The notes under the pieces were generated by a model. The model was not told the origin of the DNA, did not search any database, and saw nothing but the letters and a program-made list of their open reading frames with translations. Both the position numbers and the translations under genes were made by a program. From contig NW_020846470.1 in the NCBI RefSeq assembly GCF_003704095.1, forward strand, positions 19,971-41,883: DNA of 21,913 nt, written 5' to 3'. Below, one piece after another: positions 1,572 to 21,913 of the stretch. The DNA comes from Pocillopora damicornis. Lineage: Eukaryota. Position 1 is the first letter of the stretch; each line of letters opens with the position of its first letter.

Positions 1572-1704
1572 ATCAATATCAGTATTTGGGCAACTGCCCA
1601 CCTACCCCTCCCCTAACCCAACATTAACCTTAACTTGTTGTCAACTGACTGTTGTTGAGTTAGGGGAGGGGTAGGTGGGCAGTTGCCCAGATACTGATAT
1701 TGAT
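1572..1704. repeat. Inverted repeat (two 45-bp arms, 1 mismatch, 43-bp spacer) spanning the unit 1 / unit 2 junction
   Basis: 1572-1616 (atcaatatcagtatttgggcaactgcccacctacccctcccctaa) is the reverse complement of 1660-1704 (ttaggggaggggtaggtgggcagttgcccagatactgatattgat). The right arm recurs at 34-83. Confidence 0.8.
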
Positions 1705-2036
1705 ACACTAACTCTAATAAAAGAACGAAGACAAAGAAAACATTAAAATCACGAGATTAACATTAACCTCTTGAGTACACAACCATGCGTGGCTTCGCCT
1801 TAGCTCGCCTTAATGCCTTATGTTCTCTCTCGGCGTCACAAGTGCCGATGCTCTTCACCGGCTCAGGCTTTGATTCACTCTTTATATACATGTCTGTTTG
1901 GACAGAAACAGGATCATGTTAGTGGCAATAAGTTTTTTTTCTTTTGGAGAATGCAGAGTAACATCCATTGGAAAATCATCCTTTGTAGTTGCCCGCCCAA
2001 AATAAGAAACTCTGTTCTGTCGAACTTTGTAATAAT

Positions 2037-2190
2037 CGTCACACTCTGTAATACCTGTCGCACTATGTAAAAAAATTGTCGCACTTTGTAATACCTGGCG
2101 ACCTTTACAAAAACTTTTCGTCGCACTTCGTAACAAAAAATCTGTCACTCTTTGTAATAATAAATTATCGCACTTGGTAAGAAAATACGC
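2037..2190. repeat. Same ~20-bp sub-repeat cluster in copy 2, expanded to ~7 units
   Basis: Copy 2 has the extra block tgtcgcactatgtaaaaaaattgtcgcactttgtaatacc, absent from copy 1. Confidence 0.6.
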
Positions 2191-2794
2191 TTTTTGAAAT
2201 TTTTTCCTTCAACCTCGAGCCTTTAATGGGCCGTAATAATTATTTGCATATCAAAAAATCTTCACTAAAATAAGGTTTTCTCAGGTAATGTGCCATGAAA
2301 TTTGACGTCATACCAACTCATACTGATGATCGGAGGAATGACGACCTGAATTTTTTTATAGTATAGACTTCTTCTTGATTGATAGGGGGAATGTCATTTT
2401 CACCTTTCAAATTTCACTTTTATAGCTCGAAGAACCAGTTACTGCATCAATCTTCGAAAGATTACCAGATAAAGCGGTTCCTTTTAATGAAATGTTATAC
2501 ATTTCCCGATAGTCACCAAGACAAGCAAGTGGCTTTAAAAAAGTTGACAAGACGTAGTTACATCCTAACATCAGTGTGCATATTATCCTGACTATTCTCC
2601 ACACACAGGAGAATTTGTTAAACAATCAAGAGCTTCTTAATTGGTGATCATTTCCTTTATTCTCGACACCTTAATGTACGATTCAGGTGTGATATTGTAA
2701 GGAGAAATTAGATGCTTGTCACACTTAGGGGTCAAAAGGTAAACTATCATCACCCATCAAACCGACTAGTAAGAGAAAACACGTTCTACTGTAC

Positions 2795-2884
2795 CTTGGG
2801 TCCTCGTTTTAGAGGCTGAATTCATGGCTCTCATGATTACCCGCGGGGAGTGCGCCTCTGAAGCTTCCACTTCCTCATCCATTT
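2795..2884 (-). CDS. Candidate cassette-like exon (phase 1-1, 90 nt) in repeat copy 2: E MDEEVEASEAHSPRVIMRAMNSASKTRTQ
   Basis: Acceptor ttttcaatctacag|AA, donor CCCAAG|GTACAG. Phase-compatible with the donor of exon 3321-3490. Confidence 0.45.
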
Positions 2885-3320
2885 CTGTAGATTGAAAATA
2901 TAATTCGTATTTTGATATTTAATTTATGTTGTCATGGTGTAATTAGCTTCTTTGCTCCCTTTTGTCTATCCTTATCCCAGAAAATTATCATGTTGAGGTT
3001 TCCATCAATATTCTCTATTTGATAAATCCCAAGAAATAAACAGAGGGAAAGTGCATTCTACTCCCTGGCTCCCGCAATGATTATGTGTACTTTTCTTTTC
3101 CAAGACAGAATTTCTCCATAAAATATCGATATAATATCAACCAGATAATTGATAAGAATAAGAAAAATATCAATTTGGGGATAATTGGTTTATCCAATAC
3201 TAAATTCTCTGAACTAACATTATAAGAATTGTATGGTTGATAGCAAGGAGAATTACAAATTTGATCTAGGAGTTAAAAGGTTAAATAATGGCCGCTCCCT
3301 TGGTGTAAGTTTCCTCGTAC

Positions 3321-3490
3321 CTTGCTGGTCCATTTCACAGAATTCAAGCTCCTCTTCATCCAGAAGTTCTGCCTCCGCCACCGAAACATTATTGTCGCTA
3401 CTATCCCCAGAGGAGAAGGCACTACCTTCTGTAGGATCACTCCAGTCGGAATCTTTGCTTGTGGAATTCCGTGGCACTTCGACATCGAGA
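3321..3490 (-). CDS. VIT/VWA gene 3' exon: acidic Ser/Asp/Glu-rich segment (S)LDVEVPRNSTSKDSDWSDPTEGSAFSSGDSSDNNVSVAEAELLDEEELEFCEMDQQ
   Basis: Acceptor cattttttcgattgtag|T takes 1 nt to complete the AG left by exon 4473-4570. Donor CAGCAAG|GTACGAGG. 170 nt = 1+168+1. The 3' part is homologous to the repeat-unit exons. Confidence 0.55.
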
Positions 3491-4176: not shown

Positions 4177-4242
4177 TGACAAAAGATGTAACTTGTCCTA
4201 TGAAGTGACAGTCACAGTCATGATAATTAAATTATAATGACT

Positions 4243-4306
4243 ATATATATATATATTATAATATAATATATTATAATGATTATATATATATATATATATA
4301 TATATG
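4243..4306. repeat. (TA)n microsatellite, interrupted
   Basis: ctatatatatatatattataatataatatattataatgattatatatatatatatatatatatatatgg. Confidence 0.9.
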
Positions 4307-4472: not shown

Positions 4473-4570
4473 CTGAAATCACTGACAGCCGACTCGTTTT
4501 CTTCAAAAATTCGGCAAGCCTTCTCCTCTTCACCCATCAAAGTGTACAAGTTTGAAAGGGCTTTTATTGC
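4473..4570 (-). CDS. VIT/VWA gene exon: AIKALSNLYTLMGEEEKACRIFEENESAVSDF (phase 0 in, 2 out)
   Basis: Acceptor ttttttttttaacacag|GCA, donor TTTCAG|GTAAGAGC. PVTVK|AIKALSNLYT resembles the recalled human VWA5A C-terminal PSVVKAAITFLKS. Confidence 0.6.
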
Positions 4571-5093: not shown

Positions 5094-5237
5094 CTTAACT
5101 GTCACTGGCTGATCAGCACCGAGGTTTTCCTTCGCTTCTTCAATAATTTCTTTGTAAAGGCGCTCGCTTTGTAAAACTGAGCTTGTCTCCAACACCTTCG
5201 CCTCTTGGAGCTTTTTCTCTAGTTTCTCTTCAATATT
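5094..5237 (-). CDS. VIT/VWA gene exon: NIEEKLEKKLQEAKVLETSSVLQSERLYKEIIEEAKENLGADQPVTVK (phase 0-0)
   Basis: Acceptor ttccaaccacag|AAT, donor GTTAAG|GTAAAC. 144 nt, 48 codons with no stop, coiled-coil-like composition. Confidence 0.65.
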
Positions 5238-5651
5238 CTGTGGTTGGAACGTGGAGGGCAATCATGCAGATTTGCACATAACGACAAAATTACAATCTTA
5301 GCCTTGACCTCCAAAATCATTTTAACAAAACACCAAACCCCGAAAACGCTTTTCTTTTTGTTAAGTTAAAACCTCTCCCAACAAGGAGTGACTTCAAAAG
5401 AAGTTTGTCTTTACAAGATCTATACATTTTCAAGCAGAAAGCTGATGGGAAGAAAGGAATACCAGAATATCAACTAGGGGATGTTGTTTGATTTGACAGT
5501 AAATTCTCCGAGCCTAAAATGAGAAATATGTTCTGGAAAATGGAGAAAATTTATAGCTAGATCTTGGGACTAAGGTCATAAAAAAAACAAGATATAAGGC
5601 TTTGCAGTAAGCTCGATTTGAAGGCTACTGCTGAAAAAGGACCATTCTTAC

Positions 5652-5774
5652 CAGTTCCTGATTTTTCTCCATTACAGGTCGACTCTCCCAAGCTATGTAT
5701 TCCAATATGTCTACATCTTCCGTAGAGACCAACTCGAGTATACTCGGTCCCTGGCCCTCCTTGAATTTCTCGTC
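5652..5774 (-). CDS. VIT/VWA gene exon: DEKFKEGQGPSILELVSTEDVDILEYIAWESRPVMEKNQEL (phase 0-0)
   Basis: Acceptor ccttcttatag|GAC, donor GGAACTG|GTAAGAATGG. 123 nt. This frame was preferred over the Gly/Cys-rich frame of the six-frame track. Confidence 0.65.
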
Positions 5775-6368
5775 CTATAAGAAGGAAACGGAAAAGCAAC
5801 ACACATGTTGTCAAGAATTTTGAGAGGTTATATGGGTAATTCAACTCCAGCCAATACTCCTTTAAACAGGGTTTCAACGAGACGTATACTCTGGAAACCT
5901 TATCATTCATGTTATTAAAAGCATTTACATGTAAATTCTTAGCTTACCCCTATTTGAGATTCCAGAGTTATCTCGCCATTCGAAAATTTTCTCCTAATGC
6001 TTTAAAAATTCAACTTTAGACTCCGCCATTTTGAAAACAATTCAGTAAAATGGGAACGCACACATAACCTATGAGCAACGGTTCACATTCTGCCGCTCCT
6101 GTAGCTTCAAACAAATTGGCGAGAGATGGAAGAGTGGGGAATGAGCCTTGTTATGTCACAGGTAAGCAGCCGGATCGCTAAGAAAGGTTTAATATGGCGA
6201 CCTCCATGGTCGAATCTTCAGCAAATTGAAAAAAGACTTAGAAAGGCTCGGTTACTCTTAATAATCTCAAAATGAAGCAAGAATCATAATTTCGTACATA
6301 CGCTATTCATCAATGAGACTAAATTGCATGGTTTCTTGGGCATATTTCTCCCTTTATCTCATTTCTAC

Positions 6369-6470
6369 CTTTTCTCTGTGTTCAACTGCAACAAAACTTG
6401 TGAATTTGGATACCACGGAGAACGTCTTGCTCAAGGAAACGATGAAGTCTTTCCTGTCTCTCTTCACAAT
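6369..6470 (-). CDS. VIT/VWA gene exon: IVKRDRKDFIVSLSKTFSVVSKFTSFVAVEHREK (phase 0-0)
   Basis: Acceptor ttattttatgattccgtag|ATT, donor GAAAAG|GTAGAAATG. Aligns well with the recalled human VWA5A segment KKDALNLSLESGVISSFTAFIAINKE. Confidence 0.75.
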
Positions 6471-7014
6471 CTACGGAATCATAAAATAACAACAACCTCG
6501 GTTCAGTCATGAACAAGGCAAATCTCGACGGCCTAGACATAAGTAAGCACTTAGGTATTAACATGCAACTGCAGCCCCCGGTTCTTTGAATGGTGGATAA
6601 CTCAATCCCCAAGACAAATCTCTATCCCGTGGATAGCGCAATACGTTTTGTTCGCAGTTATCCACTAGATAGCGACTTATCCGTTATTTAGTGTTAGTTT
6701 AGCCTCTTAGTCAGCCCCTTGAACAACTCGCAGCCAGTAAATTGTGTTCGCCAAGAACACAACATGATAACCCTGAGCAGGGTTTGAACCCAGACCCCTC
6801 CATCAGGATAGTGAATCAGTGTGTAATGTGTCAATCACCATTTGAAGTTATCGTCATAATCCTCATTGTTTCTGTCTCATCTTATGGAGACTAGGGCCAA
6901 TCCCTCTTTCTCCCTCCAACACGATTTGAATTACTCAGCACCGACAACATGCGGCTAAAATAAATGCAATGATGAATGATATTATTTAATATTAGCTATG
7001 TTTTTGAGACAAAC

Positions 7015-7095
7015 CTCATGCCCAGTGCGCTGCTCATGCAGGCTACCTTCGTCCCAGTCTCTGATGATTGCACGCGCGGTCAGCTGATGAAGAAT
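7015..7095 (-). CDS. VIT/VWA gene exon: ILHQLTARAIIRDWDEGSLHEQRTGHE (phase 0-0)
   Basis: Acceptor ttccttgcacag|ATT, donor CATGAG|GTTTGTC. Aligns with the recalled VWA5A segment TIHRLAAKSLLQTKD. An alternative donor after GACGAAG|GTAGCC gives a shorter exon with a non-compatible phase. Confidence 0.65.
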
Positions 7096-7175
7096 CTGTG
7101 CAAGGAAGCGATTGTAGAAAATTACCAAAAATGCAATCACTGAAAGCTGGATAGTTTTTTTCCACTTGCACTTAC

Positions 7176-7256
7176 TTTGCCCTTAGTGATATTTAGATCA
7201 GCGGTAGACACCATGGTTGATACCGTTGTGCCGTTAACCTCTGCGCTCAAGGTGGC
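7176..7256 (-). CDS. VIT/VWA gene exon: ATLSAEVNGTTVSTMVSTADLNITKGK (phase 0-0)
   Basis: Acceptor tcctaccag|GCC, donor GGCAAA|GTAAGTGC. 81 nt. DLNIT resembles the recalled VWA5A DVNLT. Confidence 0.65.
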
Positions 7257-7333
7257 CTGGTAGGAGTTCAGAAAAAATTCAAAGCATCAGTGTGGCCTTA
7301 AAATGAACTTGATGTCAGAAAATCAGTAGTTAC

Positions 7334-7504
7334 CTGTGTGCAGTTATCAACAAATCCATAAACCACTTGTCTAGAACCGTTGAACAGCGACAAGAGTTGG
7401 TGAGGAGCTTGTACAGGGGGACTGGACCCGGAATCGTGCTGCTGCCAGGTTACTCCCACTGATGTCAGGCCTGGTTGCTCAGCTTTGGACAACTGCGATC
7501 TCAC
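7334..7504 (-). CDS. VIT/VWA gene exon: VRSQLSKAEQPGLTSVGVTWQQHDSGSSPPVQAPHQLLSLFNGSRQVVYGFVDNCTQ (phase 0-0)
   Basis: Acceptor gttcatttag|GTG, donor CACACAG|GTAACTAC. 171 nt. Aligns with the recalled VWA5A segment VSLSWHLPPG...IFRGQRLISYAQL. Confidence 0.75.
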
Positions 7505-8021
7505 CTAAATGAACATTATTTTCTCAACAACGAATTCTTAAATATTCTTTTGATAATCAATTTTTCCAGAAGCTATGGCCGTTTTCTAAGAGACAATGAA
7601 GATTGGCGGAAGTTGTCATCGATAAATAATTTCATGCCATCAATTTTCATCTCGAGTCATAATAGCCTTTTCTGTTGACAGGAATTCCATACCTTTCTTT
7701 CCCATTTAGACTTGGCACTACCTTCAAAAAACTCTGAGGCACCAGCTCCAACTCTGGACATTGCTCGTAGAAGGTAACGATTGGCCGTGGAACTGAGGAG
7801 AAAAGGAAACGAACCAAACAAGGTGTAGTGATGAGAAACTTCTCGCATACAAACGGATATATATAGCAATTTCAAAGGTAACGCCTCAAGTCATCGGTGG
7901 TGTTTAACCAAAAATCCGAATTGTCACTTATCGTCTACAGGTAGAACAGGAAAAAATAATTTAATATCAGAGATCACATTTCTTTACGGGATGCTGCGCA
8001 CCCCGAGATCTGCCTCAATCC

Positions 8022-8058: not shown

Positions 8059-8899
8059 CAACCGCAGCACACGGACTTGAGTCGACTGTCATCAGAAAAG
8101 AAAAGAAGACCGAATTGGACGACATCTTTGGATCTCTTTGCTAAGATTAAAAACAAGGGAAACTTTATCTCATGGAAAAAACATTAAGTTTACAAAATCT
8201 GAGAGCTCAAAACGCCCTTCCTGAGTGTTTGCAAAATTTAAACTTAGCTTGAGCATCCAACACAGAGCTGAAGCCTTTGGGAGATATGGTACAATACGAT
8301 CCTAACCTGGAAAGGCCCTTTTCCGGTTACTTACCCCACACCAAGGGAAAAGAGCCTGTCACTTTGGCAATGATTGCGGATCAAGCCAAGAGTGGTTTCC
8401 TCTTCTGTCACGTGGCCATCCGAGATTAAGAACAGATTGCGTGGGTGGTCAGCGGTCGATAAGGTGGGTAACATGTACAGCTTCCGAAGGACTCGCCACA
8501 ACTCTGTGCTGCCTTTGTCAGCGATTAAGGACTGGAAAAAATGACGTAATAACTAACGATCTTGACTTTCAACCGGGTTGAAAACCAAAGGAATGGAATG
8601 GCATTTTAATTCGTTTGCACAGAAAAAGAATGTTATGTTCAATGAGAAGGCAATCTGAGGAAGAAATTACATTCTCAACAAGTTTTTAAATTCTTTTCAC
8701 GTGCCTTCCACGCGGTAAATTTTGCCAGCATGAGAAATTTTCAAGTGAAATAACTGAGAAAATCGTATGCAGCCTGTGCTCATATTTTACCATTGCGAGA
8801 ATCTGAGTAAACGCAGGAGCCCATTAATGAGCTCCTAGTATACGCCGATATGTCTCTGGTCAACTGAGCCACCCTACGGAAGCTTAGGAGTTTGCTTAC

Positions 8900-8973
8900 C
8901 TCGACAAATTTTTTAGCTTCTTCAAAAGAATCTTTGTCTTTTCGTACGCTATATAGAAACAGCTCTGAATGTT
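8900..8973 (-). CDS. VIT/VWA gene exon (C-terminal VWA helix): (x)HSELFLYSVRKDKDSFEEAKKFVE (phase 1 in, 0 out)
   Basis: Acceptor tgtctgttttcag|AA, donor GTCGAG|GTAAGCAAAC. Resembles the recalled VWA5A segment TSEFITGKDRMQSKALRTLKR. The upstream partner exon that supplies 1 nt was not found. Confidence 0.6.
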
Positions 8974-9255
8974 CTGAAAACAGACAAGTACAGCCAGTTA
9001 ACTGAACTGATTTAATATCAATTTGAAGCTGCACAAAGGGCTAAAGACGCGATGGAAATGCTAAAAAACGTTTACAGAGTAAGTTGACAATTAAAGGTGT
9101 CCCTCCCTACCTGCCGTCAAAACACAGTAGTTAAACTACAAACTAATCTGAATTTCATATATTTGCACTGCGGTGAAGAGATGAAATTAAGAGATCCTCG
9201 CAGCTAAGAACACTACTGAAACGAGTAGTTGAAAATAGGACCTGAAAAAAATTCA

Positions 9256-9327
9256 GGCTCGTACGGGATTTGAGCCCATGACCTCTGCGATACCGGTGCA
9301 GCGCTTTACCAACTGAGCTAACAAGCC
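9256..9327 (-). pseudogene. tRNA-Ile-like degenerate tRNA (pseudogene or SINE head), followed by a T7 tract
   Basis: Minus strand: GGCTTGTTAGCTCAGTTGGTAAAGCGCTGCACCGGTATCGCAGAGGTCATGGGCTCAAATCCCGTACGAGCC. Resembles a recalled tRNA-Ile sequence, with acceptor stem and A/B-box-like regions. The D-stem and anticodon stem have mismatches, position 33 is not U, and the T-loop reads CTCAAAT. TGAATTTTTTT follows 4 nt downstream. Confidence 0.5.
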
Positions 9328-10800
9328 AACTGGGAGCTGGTCAATGTGTTGAGTCCAAATAAACCATCCAAGTAATGAATGAAGATTTTAGATATATGAA
9401 TTTCATATATTTAAATATATATTTATAAACTAATCTCTTGTTTGTAGTCAACAAACCATTGACAGAAATGTAGCGTCCACGGATTTACGAAAAGAGCATG
9501 GAAATGGAGCGTGTTACTCTTATTTTAACTTCAATGTTCATTGCAATCAAATCAAATAAAACCAAGGATTCTAAGGTATGCGCGAGTTGATTGGTCAATT
9601 CCGTTTCCGAGCCCACGTTCTACCAGGCCATTGACTCCCACAAAATGAGGAGAGCACCTGGCAAATCAAACGCTATTCATATGTACATCTGAATTGTTGA
9701 CGAGATAATAAATATTCTAATTCAAATAAATTACAGAAACTTTTGATTCTCTGATCTGCGATTGAAGCTGGTTCGGAAGGTTTTTTCTGTAAAACAATTG
9801 TTGAGGGTTTTGAGGAGGATTTATGATCATTGCTCAGTACTGACTGCAAGGAAAATTAGAACTATTTAATTAAAGAAGAGGTACTACACTGTGACTATAA
9901 AGTAGCTAAATATAAACTTATGTACATGGCATTTCGTGCATTCTGGCATGACTGCTTTTCATACAATTTGAATTGAGTAAACAGAATAGGAAAAACGCTA
10001 GAAGAGCAGAGTTCGCGGAGATAAACTAAAACCGAGAAAAAATTCCTGGTGCAGACCTGAGTTCTAAGCTTGGAAGGTTTTTGTACGCAGTAGTACTCTT
10101 TCGCATTCGTCAGACAATTTCTGGATACGAAAGTCTTGATTTCACTGTCAAAATTGATCAGTCTCTATTTGTCTCTGAACGAGGTTGTGCTTCATTTGAA
10201 ATTACGTTAGCCCTGGTTAGTTCTCTTCATAACTTCTTCTGAATCTTTCATCTCATTTTTTTCAACTATTGGGCTAATGCAGGTCCTCCTTACTCTTTCG
10301 AGCATTTTGATTGGTTTCTAACGCCAATAAACAATTAAGCACCACATAACAATCGCTTTTATGATTGAAATAAATTTAATTCACCACCTGACAAATCCAT
10401 GTTAAGGTTATGTCATGAAAGAAGTAAGATACATTTTCCAAGGGTTTATGCCGTGATAAACACTCACGGGATATTCGAAGAACACTCAGAAAGACTGACA
10501 ACGGCTCGTTATTCATGTTCTTTAAACAACCTGAGCGACTTTATGCCGCTAAACACTCTTGGATAAGGCTCTCTGTCGCCTACATAAATCACATCAGCAT
10601 AATTTTGCATGCTGCGGAGAACGAGTCAATACATCACTAAGTAGCTACTTTAAATGGAGATAAAACTCATTCCTACACTATTTTTGGTTTTTGGGAGATC
10701 TTATATCACCGTTTTTGAAAAATGCGGAAAGGACTCAAAGAAAATGTAATATTTAAAGCCTTAAAAATAAGTCTGAAATCATTCTCAGTTTATACGATAA

Positions 10801-11928
10801 CTAATTGTTAATACTCTCAGATTTGTGCTTTACAGAACGCAGCTTTCCCGCACACCACAAGACAATAGCAACATGTCCAAAGAGAACAAACATGGCCACG
10901 CCAACCGTGTTCATAAGAGTGGGCTGTGAAGAAAAACGATCTAACAGAGCTGATCTCCTTTCTTGAAGATCCACTTGGGCCGCGTTGAACGCCTGTTGGA
11001 TACCCATGGCGATCAATATATGAGCTAAATTGTGGCTTTGGCCAAAATTATCGAACACACCTGCCATTAAACGTTCTGGAACTCTCGTGGCGTACAGCGC
11101 GGCGCCTAAACCGCAGAAGACAACATGACGTTTGAAATACACCGTGGATATGCGGTTATACGCTGGGTCGGCGTTTTCACATAACAAAATACGGACCGTG
11201 TATGGTGATGTGATAACAAGCCAATTTACGGCAAGAACGCCGACCCTCAGCAAGGCTTTGTAATCTTTACAAAGTGGATGGTTTGATGCGCAACACAAAA
11301 AAGTTATGAAAAACGAAAAGAACGTCGAAATAGACTGGAAAACGGTAAGCGAATCGTGCACTGCCCAAGCAGACGCGCCCGCGGTCCTAGAGTAGAAAAA
11401 CATTGCTTGGCCGGCCGTGAACGTGTAAAACCCGATAGCCGCGTAGTCAAAGAAGAAACAAATTCTATGGGAATCCTCTGACATGCAGTTGAAAAGATGT
11501 GCAGAGGAACTCATTAAATACAGAACCGAAATTCCCACGGCGAAGGAGATCAGCGGCAGAAAAAATGGGTCAGTCGTGGGTAAGGACGTCATGTTTACAG
11601 ACACGAACAGTACTAGAGCAAGCAGGTGGCTCCAGACGTTTATAGTTTCGTTGGAAGATCGGAGCAAACTTCTGATACATTCCCAGAAGGTTAATCCAGG
11701 TCGTCGATAACCAGACACGATGAATGGCGTCCTGAACACTTCAGGGATTTGGTTGCTTGACAAGCCGTACTTTTTCTTGTTCGCCCCTTCAGAGTTCTCT
11801 TTTACACTTGAAGTTTTCTTCATATTGTCGCAGGCTGAAAAATTATTTTCCCATTCGTGACAGTTTGTCGGCGTTCTTTCTTTCATTTCGTTGGGTTGTT
11901 GAGGCCTTTTGTACGTCTTTAAATGCAT
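10801..11928 (-). CDS. PAQR family (class II, membrane progestin receptor-like) 7-TM protein; single exon; ~375 aa from first ATG
   Basis: Uninterrupted ORF. N-terminal IPEVFRTPFIVSGYRRP matches the recalled mPR motif VPPLFWKPYIYAGYRPL. Motifs present: NETINVWSHLL, SSSAHLFNCMS, DYAAIG, PERLMAGVFDNFGQSHNLAHILIAMG (three-His Zn site of the ADIPOR fold). Multiple hydrophobic TM segments. Confidence 0.85.
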   Translation of the reverse strand: MHLKTYKRPQQPNEMKERTPTNCHEWENNFSACDNMKKTSSVKENSEGANKKKYGLSSNQIPEVFRTPFIVSGYRRPGLTFWECIRSLLRSSNETINVWSHLLALVLFVSVNMTSLPTTDPFFLPLISFAVGISVLYLMSSSAHLFNCMSEDSHRICFFFDYAAIGFYTFTAGQAMFFYSRTAGASAWAVHDSLTVFQSISTFFSFFITFLCCASNHPLCKDYKALLRVGVLAVNWLVITSPYTVRILLCENADPAYNRISTVYFKRHVVFCGLGAALYATRVPERLMAGVFDNFGQSHNLAHILIAMGIQQAFNAAQVDLQERRSALLDRFSSQPTLMNTVGVAMFVLFGHVAIVLWCAGKLRSVKHKSESINN

Positions 11929-12502
11929 TCTCACGGATTAGCAGCTCCTTCTTTCGTTTCACTCAGCGATAAAATTGATTGATGGCGTTGTCTTCCTCAA
12001 TTAGACAACAGTTTATTCATTTGTGGGTCATTCACTTGAAGATTCCCGCCGTTAAATAAAAAATGTGGCTCACCTACGGCTGATTTCCTAGGTGCTTTCG
12101 CTTTTGCTCAATTTCCTTGAGCTTACCCGGTTGTCAAGTCAAGCACTGATATCAAACCGCTACCAGTTCTGAAAACGCCAAGCGCTGATCGGACCGCTTA
12201 CCAGTCGCGACGCTTATCATGAATAAATAAAATCGTTCTCTGCTACACTGGCAGGACAGATACGCAGACATTCTCTTGAAAAGTTCATTAAGAACTACAC
12301 GAAACCACAGATTAATACAACATTCCCGAACAAAACAAAGCCAGCGCTAAAACCGGTATGAAATGGATGACATAATAAGTTCAACTGGCTTGTAGAATCC
12401 CTCGCGCGTCTGCTCGCGTTGACTAACGTCATGTAAATTTTAAATATTTACCAGATCATCTTTCTCGAAAGCATCTCCCAGCGTTAGAACGCCAGCAATT
12501 AC

Positions 12503-12558
12503 CTTTGCCAGTATTATAAAGGCGAACAAAAGATTTTCGTAAATCTTGATTTTTTCGC
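12503..12558 (-). CDS. Possible small VWA exon (G)EKIKIYENLLFAFIILAK; weak
   Basis: Acceptor tatgcgccacag|GCG, donor GCAAAG|GTAATTGC. Phase-compatible with exon 13497-13763. Homology is weak and an alternative frame is also open. Confidence 0.25.
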
Positions 12559-13496
12559 CTGTGGCGCATAAATTTGATAAATTAGGAAAGTCACATTATT
12601 CATGTTAATATTTATTGTATAAGTCTCGAGGGACCCTCTGTTTATATTTGAATAGTTGCGTAAATATGGGCCAAACTGAAAATAATTTGAAACAAAACAG
12701 TAATACTAGTTAACAATTTGTATTTCAAGGTAAAAACACGTTCGTGACAAACTCCACAAAAATTTATCAATGTCACTCACTGAGTATTCGAACCATCGAC
12801 TTCGCAATGTATTACAAAAAAACGGACCGCATGAAATTGGAGTTAATTGTACAGAGATGTATGTAAAAAAAAAAAAACAATTCCGTTGTGATTTATTCTA
12901 TCTAGGAAAATCAACACAAATCTGATTTTCCTCGTTCTTCGCGGATGTTTCGGTATAGCTTAAAATGTACATTAAACGAACTAACAAAGCTAGGTGATAC
13001 AATACTGTAGCGAAACAAAACGATAAAATTCATTCATTGGATAGAGAAAAGGTTGCTAGAAGCAGTACCCTTTCGTGAGGGCTTCTCGCTTTTTTTGTTT
13101 CTTTATAGTATCAAAGCAGGTGATAACTCTGGACAATCAAGTCACCAGAAAAGTTTTATTTAACAAATTTCTATGGAAACGTTAGCGTTTCAGCGGAAAT
13201 TCGCTAATCGTAGTGCTATAAATCACGACGTTTGCTTGAATGTAACGGTTGAAGCGCATGCATGAAATGCACGCACAGTCAGTCTTCTTGTTATAATTTC
13301 TGTCTAGACGGATAATTCCCTTAAATTATTGAGAAGAATTTTTTAGATGCAATAACCTATCATCAAAAGGATGCTCTAAGTGGATAGAGTTCCACAGTCG
13401 TAATATATCCTTTGAACTAGACTAAAAGTAGACTGCTTTATAGAGCTCTTAAAATAGCCCTCCAAGTGGAGCCCCGCACAATGCGAGCAGGGCTAC

Positions 13497-13763
13497 CACA
13501 GGAACAAGTTGATGTAGTATCTGAAAAGAATATTATTCTCTCTACTTGAGATAAGGTATCACGAGGAAACATATCAAAATTCCATGCAGCTCTTGATAAA
13601 ACAACAACTACTTCAGACCCATAAAAACATCCGTAAGCAAGCACCTTCGAAAATCCTCGCGTTTGGGGCGTATATTTTAATACAGGAAATAAATGGGCGC
13701 TTTTACAAGGGCAAGAGAAGACACTCATTGAATTTTTCCCAAAAACGAGGCCAGATGTGGTCA
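13497..13763 (-). CDS. VIT/VWA gene exon (central VWA): (M)TTSGLVFGKNSMSVFSCPCKSAHLFPVLKYTPQTRGFSKVLAYGCFYGSEVVVVLSRAAWNFDMFPRDTLSQVERIIFFSDTTSTCSC (phase 1 in, 1 out)
   Basis: Acceptor (T-rich)cattctgcatcttaaag|TG. HLFPVLKYTPQT aligns with the recalled VWA5A CFPESVKYTQQT, and IIFFSD with LFVFTDG. Donor TGTG|GTAGCC is tentative; an alternative is ATT|GTGCGG at 13480. Confidence 0.55.
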
Positions 13764-13780
13764 CTTTAAGATGCAGAATG

Positions 13781-13824
13781 AAAAAAACAAAAACAAAAAC
13801 AAAGAAAAAATAACAACAAAAAAC
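13781..13824. repeat. (AAAAC)n-like A-rich microsatellite
   Basis: aaaaaaacaaaaacaaaaacaaagaaaaaataacaacaaaaaacc; on the minus strand it forms the T-rich polypyrimidine tract of the acceptor of exon 13497-13763. Confidence 0.8.
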
Positions 13825-14790
13825 CAGATACTATGAGTAGAATAGAAAGATGGTGAATGTTAGGATCAGTCACAACTTACAATTTTGCAATGAGCGCTAT
13901 GTAGAAGAAAAGGAAATGGTTTCCTTTATTGAAATGCTTTAGTTAGAAGCTATTATCAGTTATTGGAAGAAAGGATAGACGAGTGTGATAAACCAGTCAA
14001 AGAATCAACGCCGAAATCTAATCCTCTCTCATAATAAAACATTGTTCTTAAAGGTTTTGTAACTCGTCCTTACAACAAAGGGACGGAAGAGAGCGCTTTT
14101 TTCAATTGTTTCTAATTTTTTATTGGAGGGCCGTTCATTTAAAGAGAGCTGCTGAAACGAGAATTGAATGTGCGCCACTTAAAAGCAGTTATTCTGATAA
14201 CAGTTCGAGTACGATGACCAAAGCTGTCTCAAAATTTGTTTTAACTACAATGGTAAAAACATTTTGCGAGTAAAAACAATCATGAAATCAATTTACAAGT
14301 AGAACAAAGGTACTATGTCTGTAAAAAGTTCATTTCCATGCAATTTTCATGGACATTACATTACAATGATCAGCACAAGAATAGCGTGGAACACTGAAGT
14401 GTTAATAGGCCATTGATATCTGCAAAAAATTAATTCAAATACCTTTCTAATTAAGAATATATATAGAAAACCTCATTAAAAGATCAAGTCCTAATTGGAA
14501 GAAAAAGTTTCGGACATTTCTCTGAAGAGGACAACTTGCCTCGGTGATATAAAACATCCGTACTTAAAATAACAAAAAATATTCAAATAAATTCATGCTA
14601 TATGTATCTCAACAGTAGAAAGCAAACCGCTTGTTCTTCTTTACAATTTTCACGCTTTCCTCTTTAGAAAAACAATGGCAAACTTAAAATAAATTTTACT
14701 TTTGGAGGAAACATCCACTTCGATCAAATTACAGTATTTGCAACATAGGCGAACTTCTCGCCTTCCTTCGCAGAAATTTAAAAGTTCAGT

Positions 14791-15903
14791 TTAAGTAGAT
14801 TTATCATGTCCAATTTTACCGGATGAATTCGAAATTAAAGACCTAGCAAACCAGAGTACGATAGCGAGATTCCCAACCAGAACTAAAAGAGTCAAACCGA
14901 TCGTCTCGAAAAAACTCGGTGTATGTTCCGTGCTGAGGAATTCTTTTCTGGCTGAGAGATCCGAAAGGAGAACGGAGAATGCAAAATGGTCACCGGTAGT
15001 GGTAAGCACATGAAGAAAGTTGTGACTTTGCCCGATAAAATCGAAGAACCCGGGAACGAACCGTTCAGGTATTCGGGTCATATTCATTAAGGCAGCGGCG
15101 GCGAACGAGATAAGACACCCTACGAAGAGACCAAGAGAATCGGGATTGCATGCAGGATCAGAAGAGCACAAGAACAGACGAACGAAGTACGGTGAACAGT
15201 TGTGCAACCAGGATAGGATGTAGAAACCGGTGCGGACGATGAAACGGAGATCGAACCACTGATGACGAGACTTGCAACAGTTGAAAGTGGCACTGAACGA
15301 AATCAGGGCTGAAACGAATAGGAACAACTCCCGCCAGTCGAACAAAAGGAGCCCAGATCCCAGCGGATGGCTGTAAAAATAGAAGGCTTGACCATTGGTA
15401 AATGTGTATACGCTGATAGCAGCGTAATCCAGGTAGTACCCGATGTGGTTTTGTAGCTCGGTCATAGAGCTGAACATATGGGCCACACAACTCATCGTGT
15501 ACATAATGCAGCAGCCGAGAGTGTACGACACCAGTGGAAAATAAAAATGATCAGTGAAAGGATTATGGTTCCACACCACTGAGCAGTAGCGGGCAATGAG
15601 TATCACGGCGGAGAGAACATGGCTCCAGAAATTTACTGTCTCGTTGTTGGCGTAGAAAACACTCTTCACGCTATCGAGAGCGGTCAGGTTACGCGGCCGG
15701 TATCTTGTCGTAAGAAACTCGGTGCGGAAAGCTTGTGGGATTTGATCTTCACGTAATAACATGGAGTAGCGGTGGACCTCTTCAGTTTTACCTTCTTTCA
15801 GTGACCCATTTTTGTAAACACTATCATCTAAATCGTGCGACATCACCGCACCGTTTCGTTCGACTTGTTTAAGCTTTCCTTGTCTCGTCAGCACCTTCGT
15901 CAT
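14791..15903 (-). CDS. Second PAQR family (mPR-like) protein, paralog of 10801-11928; single exon; ~371 aa from first ATG (MTKVLTRQ...)
   Basis: ORF open to 16002, but the first ATG is at 15903. Motifs: IPQAFRTEFLTTRYRP, NETVNFWSHVLS, SCVAHMFSSMT, DYAAIS, PERFVPGFFDFIGQSHNFLHVLTTTG. Roughly 40% identical to the other copy. Confidence 0.85.
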   Translation of the reverse strand: MTKVLTRQGKLKQVERNGAVMSHDLDDSVYKNGSLKEGKTEEVHRYSMLLREDQIPQAFRTEFLTTRYRPRNLTALDSVKSVFYANNETVNFWSHVLSAVILIARYCSVVWNHNPFTDHFYFPLVSYTLGCCIMYTMSCVAHMFSSMTELQNHIGYYLDYAAISVYTFTNGQAFYFYSHPLGSGLLLFDWRELFLFVSALISFSATFNCCKSRHQWFDLRFIVRTGFYILSWLHNCSPYFVRLFLCSSDPACNPDSLGLFVGCLISFAAAALMNMTRIPERFVPGFFDFIGQSHNFLHVLTTTGDHFAFSVLLSDLSARKEFLSTEHTPSFFETIGLTLLVLVGNLAIVLWFARSLISNSSGKIGHDKST

Positions 15904-16499
15904 TTTTAACGATTTCTCCGCTCCTAAAAATATTTTTGCTTTTCTGAACCGGCGCCGGCGCTTCGCTTGTTGATGAATCGATATTGCAAACTGTAAAAAC
16001 AATTATGCAAATTCCAAACAATACGTAAGAACTGAGCAGATCTAACTTGCGCACGTTCAAAGTCATCTTCGTGGGTTGCACATTTTAAATAACGAAAAAT
16101 CATTAGAAAACGACAAATTAAAAGACACATTCTGGAGAAAACTTTACAGTAAAATCCTTCTAAAGCATCTGTATCCGTTGGATTTAATAATGGTTTCAAA
16201 GTTTTGAGTATATGGACTTTAAACTACTATCAATTAAAGAGTCTGATTATCTTTTGACTAAATAATTGACTCGTGACAGAATAGAGTGATTTTCACAATA
16301 TCTGTAAAGAATGAAGCAAAACCAAGTTTCTTTTTCTCTCTCTCTCGCACAGTTAAACCATTGCTTTATTTATTTGAGAGTTATGAACACACTGAACAGA
16401 GGTTTAAATAAAAAGGTTGGAGAGAAGAAGCTTACGCTCAAGAATCTTGAAGGGAGTACTTAAAGAAAGGAAAATACGTCACACCATAAGTGAAATTTT

Positions 16500-16560
16500 T
16501 TAAATGTCTTGAAATCCGCAATCGTTACGACGTGACGTTAACGCGCGACTGATTATCATG
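16500..16560 (-). promoter_or_regulatory. CpG-rich block with TGACGT (CRE-like) half-sites upstream of the nested PAQR gene 14791-15903
   Basis: atcgttacgacgtgacgttaacgcgcgactgattatcatg lies ~600 bp upstream of the ATG at 15903 on the coding strand. A tatttaaaat TATA-like motif lies ~185 bp upstream (around 16085). Confidence 0.25.
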
Positions 16561-17121
16561 CTGAAATGCACTGGCGTTTTTCAAGGATAGTTATTTCATA
16601 TTTGCACGCTTGAGTTGTTACAAAATTACGCTTCAAAATGCACACCATTTAACATCTAAATCCAGGTGGTTTAAGATGTGTTCAAAAATTAAAACTTCAG
16701 ATATTTCGACTCCACTCTAACGGTTCACGAATATCGCACCACAGTTGTGGTGTCGGCTCCAGGAACATTGCACATCATGGGGACGAGTATGTGCAAACAT
16801 CGTGGTGCCTGAAGACATTAGTTGTTAAAAAATTTAAAACAGATTTTTTTCGAGCTTCTCTTTTACACTTGGCACTGTTCTGATCTTCGTGCTTTAGGAG
16901 TGGTGCCCTCTTATGTCTAACGTGGCTTCAACGGAGTCTACGAATGTGAGGCGCATGAGCGAATGCAATTGGCTATTCTGACGAAAATATGACCATGGAC
17001 TAGTATGAGATAAGACACATGAAACTTTCTTTTCCAATGAAGAAACGCATTTGAGTTGCAATGTTTAAGTCCGTGGTATATCTTTTTTCAAAAAATCCCT
17101 TTAACACACAAATGAACTTAC

Positions 17122-17215
17122 TGCTTCCAAACACGAGTACGTTGAAAATCCAACCTTCCTTCACAAGACTAAGGCACATCAGTAGTATCTTTTTGGCGTC
17201 GTTAAGATTTGAACC
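17122..17215 (-). CDS. VIT/VWA gene exon (VWA alpha1/betaB): GSNLNDAKKILLMCLSLVKEGWIFNVLVFGS (phase 0 in, 1 out)
   Basis: Acceptor ttttctctaacag|GGT, donor GGAAGCA|GTAAGTTC. Aligns with the recalled VWA5A segment RIQAAKETLILLLKSLPIGCYFNIYGFGS. Continues the MIDAS motif of the previous exon. Confidence 0.7.
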
Positions 17216-17754: not shown

Positions 17755-17847
17755 CTTCATTGAGCAGGAAAGATCAAGCAGAAATATCACTTCAACTTCA
17801 GAAGGACTTTTAGCCTCGAACTCAGGATAAAATGTGAGCATACAAGC
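17755..17847 (-). CDS. VIT/VWA gene exon (start of VWA domain, MIDAS DxSxS): ACMLTFYPEFEAKSPSEVEVIFLLDLSCSMK (phase 0-0)
   Basis: Acceptor catttttcctctag|GCT, donor ATGAAG|GTCAGTG. Aligns with the recalled VWA5A segment VSFYPNIPEDQPSNTCGEFIFLMDRSGSMQ. Confidence 0.75.
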
Positions 17848-18080: not shown

Positions 18081-18218
18081 CTGTCTATCTGAATTGTTGG
18101 TGTGCCGCTCCACCCACATCCGGGGTACGTGAATCTCTGCTAAACCAATCAAAAGTTGAAATCCATCCCCAAGAGACTGGCCTGGCTCCAGTTCTATCAC
18201 TGCTTTGGTGGCTGTTCG
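18081..18218 (-). CDS. VIT/VWA gene exon: RTATKAVIELEPGQSLGDGFQLLIGLAEIHVPRMWVERHTNNSDRQ (phase 0-0)
   Basis: Acceptor tctctatccag|CGA, donor GACAG|GTCAGTGG. Aligns with the recalled VWA5A segment TSAQVSLAAGHKFDRDVELLIYYNEVHTPSVVLEMG. Confidence 0.75.
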
Positions 18219-18716: not shown

Positions 18717-18810
18717 CTTAACTTTCATCGCATGAGTCGGTGAGTCAAGTGAGCGAATCTCAAAGGGCATCTCCACGGACACTTTCATAGAAACGTCAAA
18801 GGCGGGATCG
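18717..18810 (-). CDS. VIT/VWA gene exon: (C)DPAFDVSMKVSVEMPFEIRSLDSPTHAMKVK (phase 2 in, 0 out)
   Basis: Acceptor cgttgttctctttcag|C, donor GTTAAG|GTAATATTC. Aligns with the recalled VWA5A segment DLPYTLSMVATIDSQHGIEKVQSNCPLSPTEY. Confidence 0.75.
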
Positions 18811-18953: not shown

Positions 18954-18994
18954 CAGGGTCCCACTTCCCCTATCCGCACTGTATCCACATAAGT
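18954..18994 (-). CDS. 41-nt micro-exon: TYVDTVRIGEVGP + 2 nt (phase 0 in, 2 out)
   Basis: Required to bridge phase 0 (exon 19104-19268) to phase 2 (exon 18717-18810). Acceptor tttttttttcttatcag|ACT, donor CCCTG|GTGAGT (consensus). Confidence 0.5.
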
Positions 18995-19103: not shown

Positions 19104-19268
19104 CTGAGTTACTTCTTCTAAGGCCTTGTCACGTGTCCACGGAGCCACGGTGCCTGGGAGAGAGAAACAGATGTGTTCGCCGTCCACTGTTAATTCAGTG
19201 ACATAAGTTATCTTGATTAATACTTGAGCACCGGGAGGAAGGTTTCCAACACTGACTGTAAACACATC
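19104..19268 (-). CDS. VIT/VWA gene exon (VIT core): DVFTVSVGNLPPGAQVLIKITYVTELTVDGEHICFSLPGTVAPWTRDKALEEVTQ (phase 0-0)
   Basis: Acceptor tatttactcag|GAT. Strong match to the recalled VWA5A segment DVFSCNVGNLQPGSKAAVTLKYVQELPLEADGALRFVLPAVLNPRY. The 3' end is either CAG|GTCATG (19104) or GAA|GTAACT (19113); both leave phase 0. Confidence 0.75.
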
Positions 19269-19736: not shown

Positions 19737-19870
19737 CGGAGTTTCCTCGTCCATAAGGTAGGCCCCATGCCCCTTGCTGATGGCTTCCCTATATTCTTTG
19801 TGCGCTTGTTCTTTTTCCTTCACTTCACCAACGATATGCTTACCATTGATGAACGCCTCAAAACCACAAA
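19737..19870 (-). CDS. VIT/VWA gene exon: (V)CGFEAFINGKHIVGEVKEKEQAHKEYREAISKGHGAYLMDEETP (phase 1 in, 0 out)
   Basis: Acceptor ctggtcatag|TT, donor ACTCCG|GTAGGT. Aligns with the recalled VWA5A segment YSFEALVDGKKIVAELQDKMKARTNYEKAISQGHQAFLLEGDSSSR. Confidence 0.8.
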
Positions 19871-20229: not shown

Positions 20230-20314
20230 CTGCTGCCATGTCGTCGAGAGGGAAAACGTATTTAGCTTCTATGGGCGTCGAGCTGTTATTGCTGTACTCT
20301 TGAAAAACTATCAC
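20230..20314 (-). CDS. VIT/VWA gene exon 2: VIVFQEYSNNSSTPIEAKYVFPLDDMAA(G) (phase 0 in, 1 out)
   Basis: Acceptor T20-accacag|GTG, donor GCAG|GTTTGTC. Aligns with the recalled VWA5A segment ATLNYENEEKVPLEAFFVFPMDEDSA. Confidence 0.75.
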
Positions 20315-20834: not shown

Positions 20835-20951
20835 CTGAGCCGCCAAATCCAACAGCCTAGCTCTAATATGAACTGACTGCAACGGGATGGACTTGTCTCC
20901 AGTTCCCTTAAGTCCTGCCTCAACTTTAGTCAGAGGATCCACAATTGACAT
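20835..20951 (-). CDS. VIT/VWA gene first coding exon with start codon: MSIVDPLTKVEAGLKGTGDKSIPLQSVHIRARLLDLAAQ
   Basis: First in-frame ATG after an upstream in-frame TGA. Donor GCTCAG|GTTGGTC. Aligns with the recalled VWA5A N-terminus GLLTLHREPVPLKSISVSVNIYEFVAGVS. Confidence 0.7.
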
Positions 20952-21913
20952 CACATCCGTTAGGACTACACTGCCGCGATGGTCTAGGAAAAAGCATTTG
21001 AAATCAGTTCAAAACTCTAGTTACATTTTCAACTATTGTAAGAACATGCTTAAAAGCAATAACAAATAGAAAATAGACTCATATCGCAATTTATTATCCA
21101 TAATATAATTGAATAACAGCGACCTGTCACCTTAATTTTAGAAACCTACATAAAAATGTCAAAATGGAGGACGTTCATTCAATACCTTCGGGAGCAGCTT
21201 CCGAGCTATCATCGAAAAACCCGCTATCAATCGAGGCATCATCTCGATCAGCGACTACAACATCACCACGCAACACAAACTCAACCAGATATCTGCAAAA
21301 AAATGGAAATTTTTAAAGATCTTTGGACAGATATTTTACACACACGTATCGTAAATAAAGGTTATAGTTCTAAAAAAAGTATCAAATAAATCTGGCCCTG
21401 CATAACTGCCGAGGCTTAACGCACTTTTTTTTTTAGCATTACGTGACTTAGGGTAGTAAACAGCCTCAAGTAAGCTCCCTAACAACTCTGGGAAGGAAGA
21501 GAGACTGTATCACTTCAGGCTTTGCCAGAAACGAAAAATCGTTTCCCGGCCAAAGCTTGGCCTCAGTTTATTTTACAGATCCAGAATTGATCAAGATGCA
21601 CCGTCTCTTTTTAATATGAATCTATTATCCAACAAACAAATACCGAGAATGGAAAATCTTATCAAGAAAATATGTGTTGATATAACACCAAATCCTCCCA
21701 ACTAATTTAAAAGAAAATGTAAAGCAGTTTATGAATCAGATCTATGAAGTCCTCTTAACTGCAACCCTCAAAGCTAGGTGATGGACACCAAGCACTGTTA
21801 CAGTTACCTTATTTTCTGTTGGTTCCCGTTGTAGATGGCAAACTCGTCGTCCTGAAGAGCAATCAAAGTGCTCTGTGAGCAAACTCGTGAATTGACACAT
21901 GATTTTTTAGATT

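Follow-up and report, generated by a model that had tools for sequence, protein, structure and literature searches.

The minus strand of a 21,913-nt stretch of Pocillopora damicornis DNA (contig NW_020846470.1; hereafter the window, ~39% GC, zero Ns, eukaryotic) holds two long open reading frames (ORFs), both of the PAQR family, together with many short stop-free pieces bounded by AG and GT. This layout raises the question of how the elements belong together: which gene the short pieces make up, whether the PAQR genes are nested inside it, and whether such nesting ties the host gene and the nested genes to each other. An original prediction, made from the sequence alone, had described a secreted, VWA5A-like host carrying one PAQR gene in each of two introns, and had suggested an unusual functional linkage between them. 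We found that both PAQR genes lie within one intron and that the host, judged by its sequence, is PARP4, the vault poly(ADP-ribose) polymerase. The locus is very probably a tandem, ancient pair of single-exon class-II PAQR genes, nested on the strand of the host in the intron that splits the VWA domain of PARP4, with nothing so far that indicates functional coupling between the two. Apart from the tandem repeats at its low-coordinate end, the features of the window described below are on the minus strand unless stated otherwise, and positions are those of the window.

One PARP4 intron spanning both PAQR genes

Host exons were mapped from tblastn matches, from a cDNA-like contig of a close relative (L007) and by a search for splice sites; all junctions are AG/GT, and joining the exons yields a single open frame. 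The exon at 17122-17215, which lies in the VWA domain and closes with ...NVLVFGS, is the last before the PAQR genes and ends in phase 1 at the donor GTAAGT. The exon at 8900-8973 (K-HSELFLYSVRKDKDSFEEAKKFVE), recovered by tblastn, L007 and splice sites, is the first after them and continues the VWA domain behind the polypyrimidine-AG acceptor TGTCTGTTTTCAG. Their junction reads VFGS-K-HSELF, a peptide matched in the intron-free sequence of the homologue P0085 (VFGSKHSELF) and in an Acropora model (LFGSKNSELF). The residues of the homologues run continuously from ...VFGS to K-HSELF, leaving none to spare for an extra exon, and one Pfam VWA_3 match covers both sides of the 17122/8973 junction. 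Both PAQR genes are within this single phase-1 intron (8974-17121), which measures 8,148 nt compared with 77-1,081 nt for the other introns of the window. The intron also splits the VWA domain: the DxSxS motif of the metal ion-dependent adhesion site (MIDAS; here DLSCS) is encoded upstream, in the exon at 17755-17847 that starts the domain (Pfam, tblastn and splice sites), and the other MIDAS residues, Thr and Asp, downstream, in the exon at 8335-8531 (GST... and LISDG; Pfam, tblastn, L007 and splice sites), such that a working VWA domain needs splicing across both PAQR genes.

Such splicing is seen in a related coral. The mRNA contig L008 (JGI), which encodes P0085, aligns exon by exon with the genomic contig L005 at 98-100% identity and joins L005 positions 3341-3436 directly to 13613-13690, removing 10.2 kb that hold the PAQR genes of that coral (6140-7276 and 10001-11161). 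This proves that the host mRNA is spliced across the PAQR pair in the related coral, and the RefSeq model P0087 of Acropora digitifera likewise joins the exons flanking the pair. The splice boundaries originally placed at 17122|17121, 8974|8973 and 4473 are canonical GT/AG sites, and the exon junctions on the minus strand bear out the nesting of both PAQR genes, in the orientation of the host, inside its intron.

The same exons identify the host. A rough concatenation of the flanking exon-like pieces matched the Pfam profiles VIT (E=3.8e-38) and VWA_3 (E=2.3e-12), so that the predicted VIT/VWA product stands. The best homologues are annotated as "poly [ADP-ribose] polymerase 4-like" in A. digitifera and "Protein mono-ADP-ribosyltransferase parp4" in Desmophyllum pertusum, and homologues of the host carry the PARP catalytic domain (PF00644) before VIT and VWA, and the PARP4 MVP-interaction domain (PF26156) after them. 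Using P0085 and the Desmophyllum model P0094 as tblastn queries, we found the tail of the PARP catalytic domain on two exons of the window. The first (21808-21851) encodes DDEFAIYNGNQQKIR, the C-terminal tail of PF00644, and passes through the junction peptide ...QQKIR|YLVEF into the second (21186-21292; YLVEFVLRGD...SSEAAPE; tblastn and splice sites), which links the PARP domain to VIT. Since these exons lie upstream of 20951, the Met at that position, from which the host had been taken to start, is internal to the exon at 20835-20983, and the chain runs on through both PARP-tail exons and beyond the window. A VWA5A-like host is therefore at odds with PARP-domain exons spliced upstream of VIT and with close homologues that are all PARP4, and the supposed secreted product gives way to an intracellular vault PARP.

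The host is cut by both ends of the window, which contains neither its N-terminal part (BRCT, PARP_reg) nor its C-terminal, MVP-binding part, nor most of its PARP catalytic domain. A PARP_reg ORF lies ~3.5 kb further upstream in a contig of the same species that is 99% identical to the window (L012). PF26156 is found in an 89%-identical relative (P0105), and the matching Pocillopora region lies past the low-coordinate end of the window. At that end the host extends past 4473, at least to an exon starting at 3490.

Two old and constrained PAQR genes

The ORFs originally reported at 14791-15903 and 10801-11928 are both where they had been placed; the coordinates include the stop codons. The first, PAQR-B (370 aa), and the second, PAQR-A (375 aa), are intronless and match the Pfam HlyIII/PAQR profile PF03006 over nearly its whole length (PAQR-A, E=6.4e-31, profile positions 4-220 of 224; PAQR-B, E=5.1e-25, positions 1-220 of 224). 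They share 39% identity with each other, which makes them old paralogues rather than the products of a recent duplication. PAQR-B is residue for residue identical (100%) to XP_027051522.1, "membrane progestin receptor delta-like" of P. damicornis, which also places the origin of the window in Pocillopora. PAQR-A falls in a common 90% cluster with XP_058952383.1, "mPR gamma-A-like" of P. verrucosa, also of 375 aa and with an identical start. RefSeq already lists the two as distinct protein-coding genes. The next named relatives are from Oculina patagonica (71% identity) and Nematostella (44%), and a sponge "mPR gamma-A-like" protein reaches only 28%; the named homologues of both genes are all "membrane progestin receptor gamma/delta-like". 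We assign the pair to class II, that is, to membrane-progestin-receptor (mPR)-like proteins of the cnidarian "mPR-gamma" type, a putative assignment that takes its basis from RefSeq best-hit names and a published survey, not from a phylogeny.

The zinc site typical of the adiponectin receptor (AdipoR) fold and the mPR-type N-terminal motif had been described as intact, and the alignments confirm this for both genes. In a phmmer search against PDB sequences, PAQR-A aligns to human AdipoR1 and AdipoR2 (E=3e-14), with H144, D161, H299 and H303 opposite the AdipoR1 zinc ligands H191, D208, H337 and H341; the Asp column is marked by the D208A mutant entry 6KRZ. PAQR-B carries the equivalent motifs NETxNxWSH, SxxxH...DY, PERxxxGxFD and SHxxxH. 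Both genes thus display the PAQR signature that we looked for, namely a His in transmembrane helix 2 (SxxxH), an Asp in helix 3, HxxxH in helix 7 and an N-terminal ExxNxW(S/T)H, and the ligand and motif residues are invariant across 43 aligned homologues. An AlphaFold2 model of PAQR-A from the 43-homologue alignment (pLDDT 85.8, pTM 0.84) returned AdipoR1/2 as all of the top eight PDB matches of a fold search (E~1e-8, TM-score by target 0.73-0.81), while G protein-coupled receptors and rhodopsins stayed at TM-scores of 0.47 or below (best G protein-coupled receptor E=6e-3, TM-score ~0.4). Past the HxxxH helix the model places an extra helix at residues 339-374, outside the AdipoR-aligned core, and strongly hydrophobic segments follow the HxxxH helix in both proteins (342-360 in PAQR-A, 335-353 in PAQR-B). 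An extra, eighth C-terminal transmembrane helix is typical of the mPR class. As modelled for PAQR-A, each gene is thus predicted to encode a seven-transmembrane protein of the AdipoR fold, with its His/Asp/HxxxH zinc site intact and an eighth, C-terminal helix.

Compared codon by codon with orthologues of four to five other corals, PAQR-A gave dN/dS ratios of 0.13-0.17 and PAQR-B ratios of 0.10-0.15, indicating that both genes are under purifying selection and are functional genes rather than retro-pseudogenes. A 424-aa "long" form of PAQR-B (P0231, from the Pocillopora contig L016) was considered as a PARP4-PAQR fusion or a spliced leader and was rejected: a 1-nt indel within a run of A in the 5' leader (window ~15950-16085) merges two frames and so produces the extension, which shows that the leader is free of coding constraint.

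The arrangement is real and old. Five independent assemblies (L002 and L012-L015) are colinear with the window at 99-99.95% identity, which excludes the mis-assembly that had been put forward as a caveat; the Tara Pacific scaffold L002 covers 16815-9228 at 99%, and L012-L015 run from host exons through both PAQR genes into host exons again (99-99.95%). Synteny in related genomes, another point that had been left to check, holds as well: in two other corals (L003 and L005) and in A. digitifera (L009), the intron, the order and the strand are kept, with the VFGS exon, the PAQR-B orthologue, the PAQR-A orthologue and the HSELF exon following one another on one strand, and the NCBI annotation of A. 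digitifera shows two HlyIII genes within the range of a PARP4-like gene. Orthology is one-to-one, each copy having 65-66% identity to its match and 36-38% to the other. Pocillopora belongs to the Robusta clade of corals and Acropora to the Complexa clade. Since both share the locus, PAQR-A and PAQR-B were already duplicated and nested before crown Scleractinia underwent its deepest split, the divergence of Complexa and Robusta. The locus is therefore a deeply conserved synteny marker for Scleractinia, found in both major clades.

Outside the corals, the closest homologues in Nematostella (L006) are a pair that is not nested: a COX24_C-domain gene lies between the two, and a peptidase-M13 gene beside them. 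No PARP4 exons were found within 10 kb of the PAQR homologues in L006 or in contig L017, the PARP4 loci themselves not being among the sequences retrieved. Like the coral genes, P0023, the closest homologue from Nematostella, has a single-exon ORF (a 1,029-nt gene, 342 aa), and on this one outgroup gene the lack of introns looks ancestral, not a sign of retroposition. Contig L017 also holds, at 6031-7727 and thus 2-4 kb upstream of its PAQR homologue, two ORFs with Pfam matches of the YqaJ or viral alkaline-exonuclease type, which may be a transposon-borne or virus-derived recombinase module.

Expression signals and competing explanations

The original prediction had given the PAQR genes their own TATA-like and CRE-like motifs upstream. 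For PAQR-A, we found a conserved block, TTTTATTTATTCATGATAAGCGTC, at 12209-12232, ~300 nt upstream of the ATG; it is nearly invariant in a six-species alignment that includes Acropora, and is the only non-coding stretch of the intron recovered by cross-genus BLAST. This block reads as a TATA-like candidate core promoter of PAQR-A. It also holds an ATG (12220), invariant in all six aligned corals, that opens a short upstream ORF (MISVATGKRSDQ...) in Pocillopora, and may be a conserved upstream-ORF start instead of, or besides, a TATA-like element. The motif claim is thus weak: its TATA-like part has backing for PAQR-A but not for PAQR-B, and no full cAMP response element (CRE) lies near either gene; the only complete palindrome of the window is at 2303, and near the PAQR genes there are only half-sites, at chance level. 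One TGACG half-site (12431) lies in a block common to four of the six aligned corals (the window, L010, Oculina L001 and L003). PAQR-B has AATAAA signals at 14124 and 13930, 670 and 860 nt past its stop codon, and a search for conserved 3' elements of the PAQR genes recovered no blocks. The conserved block of PAQR-A, together with the separate RefSeq gene models, suggests that the PAQR genes are independent transcription units with intronic promoters.

On this basis, the locus may be pictured as follows. The host pre-mRNA is transcribed through both PAQR genes, which leave with the spliced intron, as the mRNA of the related coral shows; the PAQR genes are presumably transcribed from their own intronic promoters. 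Being intronless, the nested genes would add no competing splice sites on the strand of the host, and the nesting would most likely have persisted since a gene borne in an intron is hard to move without damage to its host. Nothing points to a functional link between PARP4 and the PAQR genes, and the layout fits the usual pattern of same-strand nesting, so that the unusual linkage originally suggested is not indicated.

Several observations weigh against uncoupled nesting as just described. The independent transcription of the PAQR genes is itself inferred; upstream of PAQR-B, neither a conserved block (within 700 nt) nor a canonical TATA (within 800 nt) was found, PAQR-A has no AATAAA within ~1.8 kb downstream, where ATTAAA variants alone occur, and the class-II label has the basis given above. 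A protein search centred on the exon junction returned no spliced Pocillopora PARP4 product, only distant matches; the transcripts across the PAQR genes for which the original prediction had proposed to look were thus found in the related coral (L008 on L005) and not in the species itself. The Desmophyllum model P0094 ends in ...VFGS|ISSQ, exactly at the exon preceding the PAQR intron. Finally, the cDNA-like Logan contig L007 (SRR13196817) starts 28 nt before the exon following the intron; these 28 nt are not the preceding exon, have no convincing match to the intron of the window and contain an in-frame TAA; they may represent an alternative 5' end, intron retention or simply the place where the contig stops. 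Truncated or alternative host transcripts may therefore exist at the PAQR intron. Most simply, the end of P0094 is a prediction broken by the nested genes, that is, an annotation artefact.

Three readings would alter the structure of the locus itself. That the host is two genes, with the PAQR genes in the intergenic space between a PARP-VIT gene that stops short of 16000 and a VWA/MVP-binding gene that begins only past 10800, would account for the end of P0094, for L007 and P0105 beginning at the exon that follows the intron, and for the lack of a spliced Pocillopora product in the junction-centred search. It is nevertheless very unlikely, given that the intron cuts the VWA domain into two halves, each with part of the MIDAS residues, and a single VWA_3 match spans both, that donor and acceptor are canonical, phase-matched and conserved, and that L008 and P0087 both join the two exons, the former across 10.2 kb of L005; the spliced L008 likewise opposes the outcome that had been named as refuting the nesting, a host ending before 16002 and a new gene after 10800. 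Less probable still is the two-intron model, in which a coding exon at 13497-13763 separates introns with one PAQR gene each. This segment does look like an exon, with 267 stop-free nucleotides (a multiple of 3), a compatible phase, a polypyrimidine-AG acceptor and a GT donor, and it is intact in the same-species L002. Yet four other places in the 8,148-nt intron yield phase-compatible AG..GT segments of at least 150 nt, no residue of a PARP4 homologue (tblastn) and no cDNA maps to it, it has no Pfam match, and the ORFs found between the PAQR genes in L003 and L005 are unrelated sequences, leaving it without a counterpart there; moreover, it would put 89 aa into the middle of the VWA fold. We rejected this exon on these grounds (homologue mapping, Pfam, cross-species conservation and chance equivalents), and the middle exon of the original model is a chance ORF inside a single intron. 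There is next to no chance that the PAQR ORFs represent recent retrocopies or pseudogenes in decay, or that faulty assembly placed them in the intron. Intronless genes located in an intron are the classic signature of retroposition, but dN/dS ratios of 0.10-0.17 against four to five orthologues, one-to-one Acropora orthologues at the equivalent place and the single-exon structure of Nematostella P0023 (one outgroup gene) all argue against it, and the five matching assemblies argue against an artefact. The pseudogene and artefact versions are refuted; an ancient origin by retroposition may be true and would leave the present description unchanged.

A different kind of alternative accepts the structure and adds function, proposing that the nesting was kept for hundreds of millions of years because of mutual regulation between PAQR and PARP4 expression. 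Use of the promoters or poly(A) sites of the PAQR genes, for instance, could truncate PARP4 transcripts after VIT and half of VWA, giving an isoform without the vault-binding domain; alternatively, read-through from the host could silence the PAQR genes. Position, order and strand are deeply conserved, the Desmophyllum PARP4 model stops at the PAQR intron, the L007 cDNA starts just before the exon that follows it, and mammals offer documented cases in which nested genes cause transcriptional interference (PMC11694760, PMC3192792). However, a nested gene is hard to remove, so that neutrality alone would lead one to expect conserved nesting; in Drosophila, a nested gene and its host show weaker correlation in expression and function than neighbouring genes do (PMC3814207); a product truncated within VWA would lack the MIDAS Thr and Asp; and the truncation of P0094 is more simply an annotation artefact. 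We consider functional coupling unlikely. The specific claim that the position of the pair in the VWA-splitting intron since before the Complexa/Robusta divergence reflects regulatory coupling with PARP4, by transcriptional interference or premature polyadenylation, is a shade less likely again, conservation being its sole positive support. If it were true, activated PAQR promoters or poly(A) sites could turn PARP4 output away from the full-length, vault-binding enzyme and towards a truncated PARP-VIT isoform, or read-through from the host could gate PAQR expression; either would link a candidate lipid- or steroid-sensing receptor to vault and ADP-ribosylation biology in corals.

The remaining host exons and comparison with known systems

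Upstream of the PAQR intron, the exon at 20835-20983 (tblastn, splice sites and Pfam VIT) holds the start of the VIT domain, which continues through exons at 20230-20314, 19737-19870 and 19104-19268. A micro-exon encoding TYVDTVRIGEVGP follows at 18954-18994, found by tblastn of residues 298-311 of P0085 and by its splice sites, and then exons at 18717-18810 and 18081-18218 lead to the start of VWA; except for the micro-exon and the first, all rest on tblastn and splice sites. Downstream of the intron, past the second VWA exon, tblastn, L007 and splice sites together define exons at 7693-7792, 7334-7504, 7176-7256, 7015-7095, 6369-6470 and 5652-5774. The exon at 4473-4570 (AIKALSNLYTLMGEEEKA...), the last of the chain originally proposed, was placed by the alignment of the L007 cDNA and by splice sites. 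It is followed by an exon at 3391-3490 in an acidic, Ser-rich region, with its acceptor at 3490 and positions 1022-1097 of L007 aligned to 3469-3391; its 3' boundary is tentative.

Between the exons at 5652-5774 and 4473-4570, a stop-free segment at 5100-5240 (EKLEKKLQEAKVLETSSVLQSERLYKEIIEEAKENLG...) aligns at 45% identity to residues 789-835 of the Acropora PARP4 model. L007 skips it, joining 5652 straight to 4570, and the segment may be a host exon that is used alternatively. The host intron downstream of the exon at 4473-4570 contains an AT-rich, microsatellite-like tandem repeat (4223-4305) with a 39-nt unit and (AT)n. Beyond the last mapped host exon lies a tandem duplication of ~1.65 kb (43-1438 and 1664-3096; segments 84-98% identical, spacing 1606-1670 nt), which carries the full CRE palindrome at 2303-2310 and could be an intronic repeat or a transposable element. 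Within the PAQR-bearing intron, 3' of PAQR-A, a tRNA-like sequence at 9255-9327 scores 50.8 bits against the Rfam tRNA model and is called tRNA-Thr, anticodon GGT, by ARAGORN. Copies with 81% identity form a tandem array with a spacing of 239 nt at an unrelated place in Acropora (L009 4664-5429), and rather than a working tRNA gene, the sequence is probably the head of a tRNA-derived repeat.

For annotation, the locus carries three lessons: the host is PARP4 and not VWA5A, gene predictors evidently break coral PARP4 at the PAQR intron, as in the Desmophyllum model, and a phase-compatible chance ORF can pass for an exon. Searches of the literature on coral mPRs, on PARP4 together with PAQR, and on PARP4 or vaults in cnidarians returned no paper on a PAQR gene inside PARP4 in any organism, and none on a functional link between the two. 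The statement that the linkage is undescribed therefore holds for the literature covered by these searches, while the two HlyIII genes are visible within the PARP4-like annotation of A. digitifera.

The two constrained, mPR-like PAQR genes are candidate membrane sensors of steroids or lipids in corals. In the literature on cnidarian mPRs, we found no characterised member, ligand or activity. To our knowledge, cnidarians are without nuclear progesterone and oestrogen receptors, and a published count of nuclear progesterone receptors in Nematostella is zero (Table 3 of PMC6604198). The same survey places cnidarian genes of the PAQR-A/B type as "mPR-gamma", with seven copies in Nematostella, and has mPR-delta arising in vertebrates only (PMC6604198), so that the "gamma" and "delta" tags of RefSeq on the coral genes are best-hit labels and not statements of orthology. 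The coral pair resembles class II PAQR proteins (vertebrate PAQR5-9 and cnidarian mPR-gamma) in its HlyIII domain and in the AdipoR-type seven-transmembrane fold, zinc site and C-terminal helix predicted for it. It is also tandem and has a single coding exon, in keeping with a class that usually expands by tandem duplication and in which human mPR-beta and mPR-epsilon each have a single coding exon (PMC6604198).

The host shares with VWA5A the succession of VIT and VWA, and differs from it in having PARP catalytic-domain exons directly upstream of VIT, VWA5A being without a PARP domain. With PARP4 (vPARP) it shares the order PARP catalytic domain, VIT, VWA and MVP-interaction domain, as seen in its closest homologues, the closest named of which are coral PARP4 proteins.

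As to the nesting, 17% of human and 12% of mouse genes host a nested gene (PMC11694760). In Drosophila, ~10% of genes are in nested structures, the nested genes sit in long introns, only ~29% of them are on the host strand and 72.5% of the same-strand ones are single-exon, with no particular tendency of hosts and nested genes towards co-expression or related function (PMC3814207). The coral PAQR genes are like the host/nested pairs of Drosophila, human and mouse in lying wholly within one host intron, by far the longest of those mapped, and like the same-strand nested genes of Drosophila in being single-exon genes in a long intron. They differ in that two paralogues occupy one intron, in that the arrangement has outlasted the deepest split among stony corals, and in age: the Drosophila nested genes tend to be young and fast-evolving (PMC3814207), whereas the coral genes are old and constrained (dN/dS 0.10-0.17). 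No new mechanism is involved, single-exon same-strand genes in long introns being the standard form of nesting, and the locus is a well-conserved new instance of a common genome arrangement, built from component genes that are already annotated.

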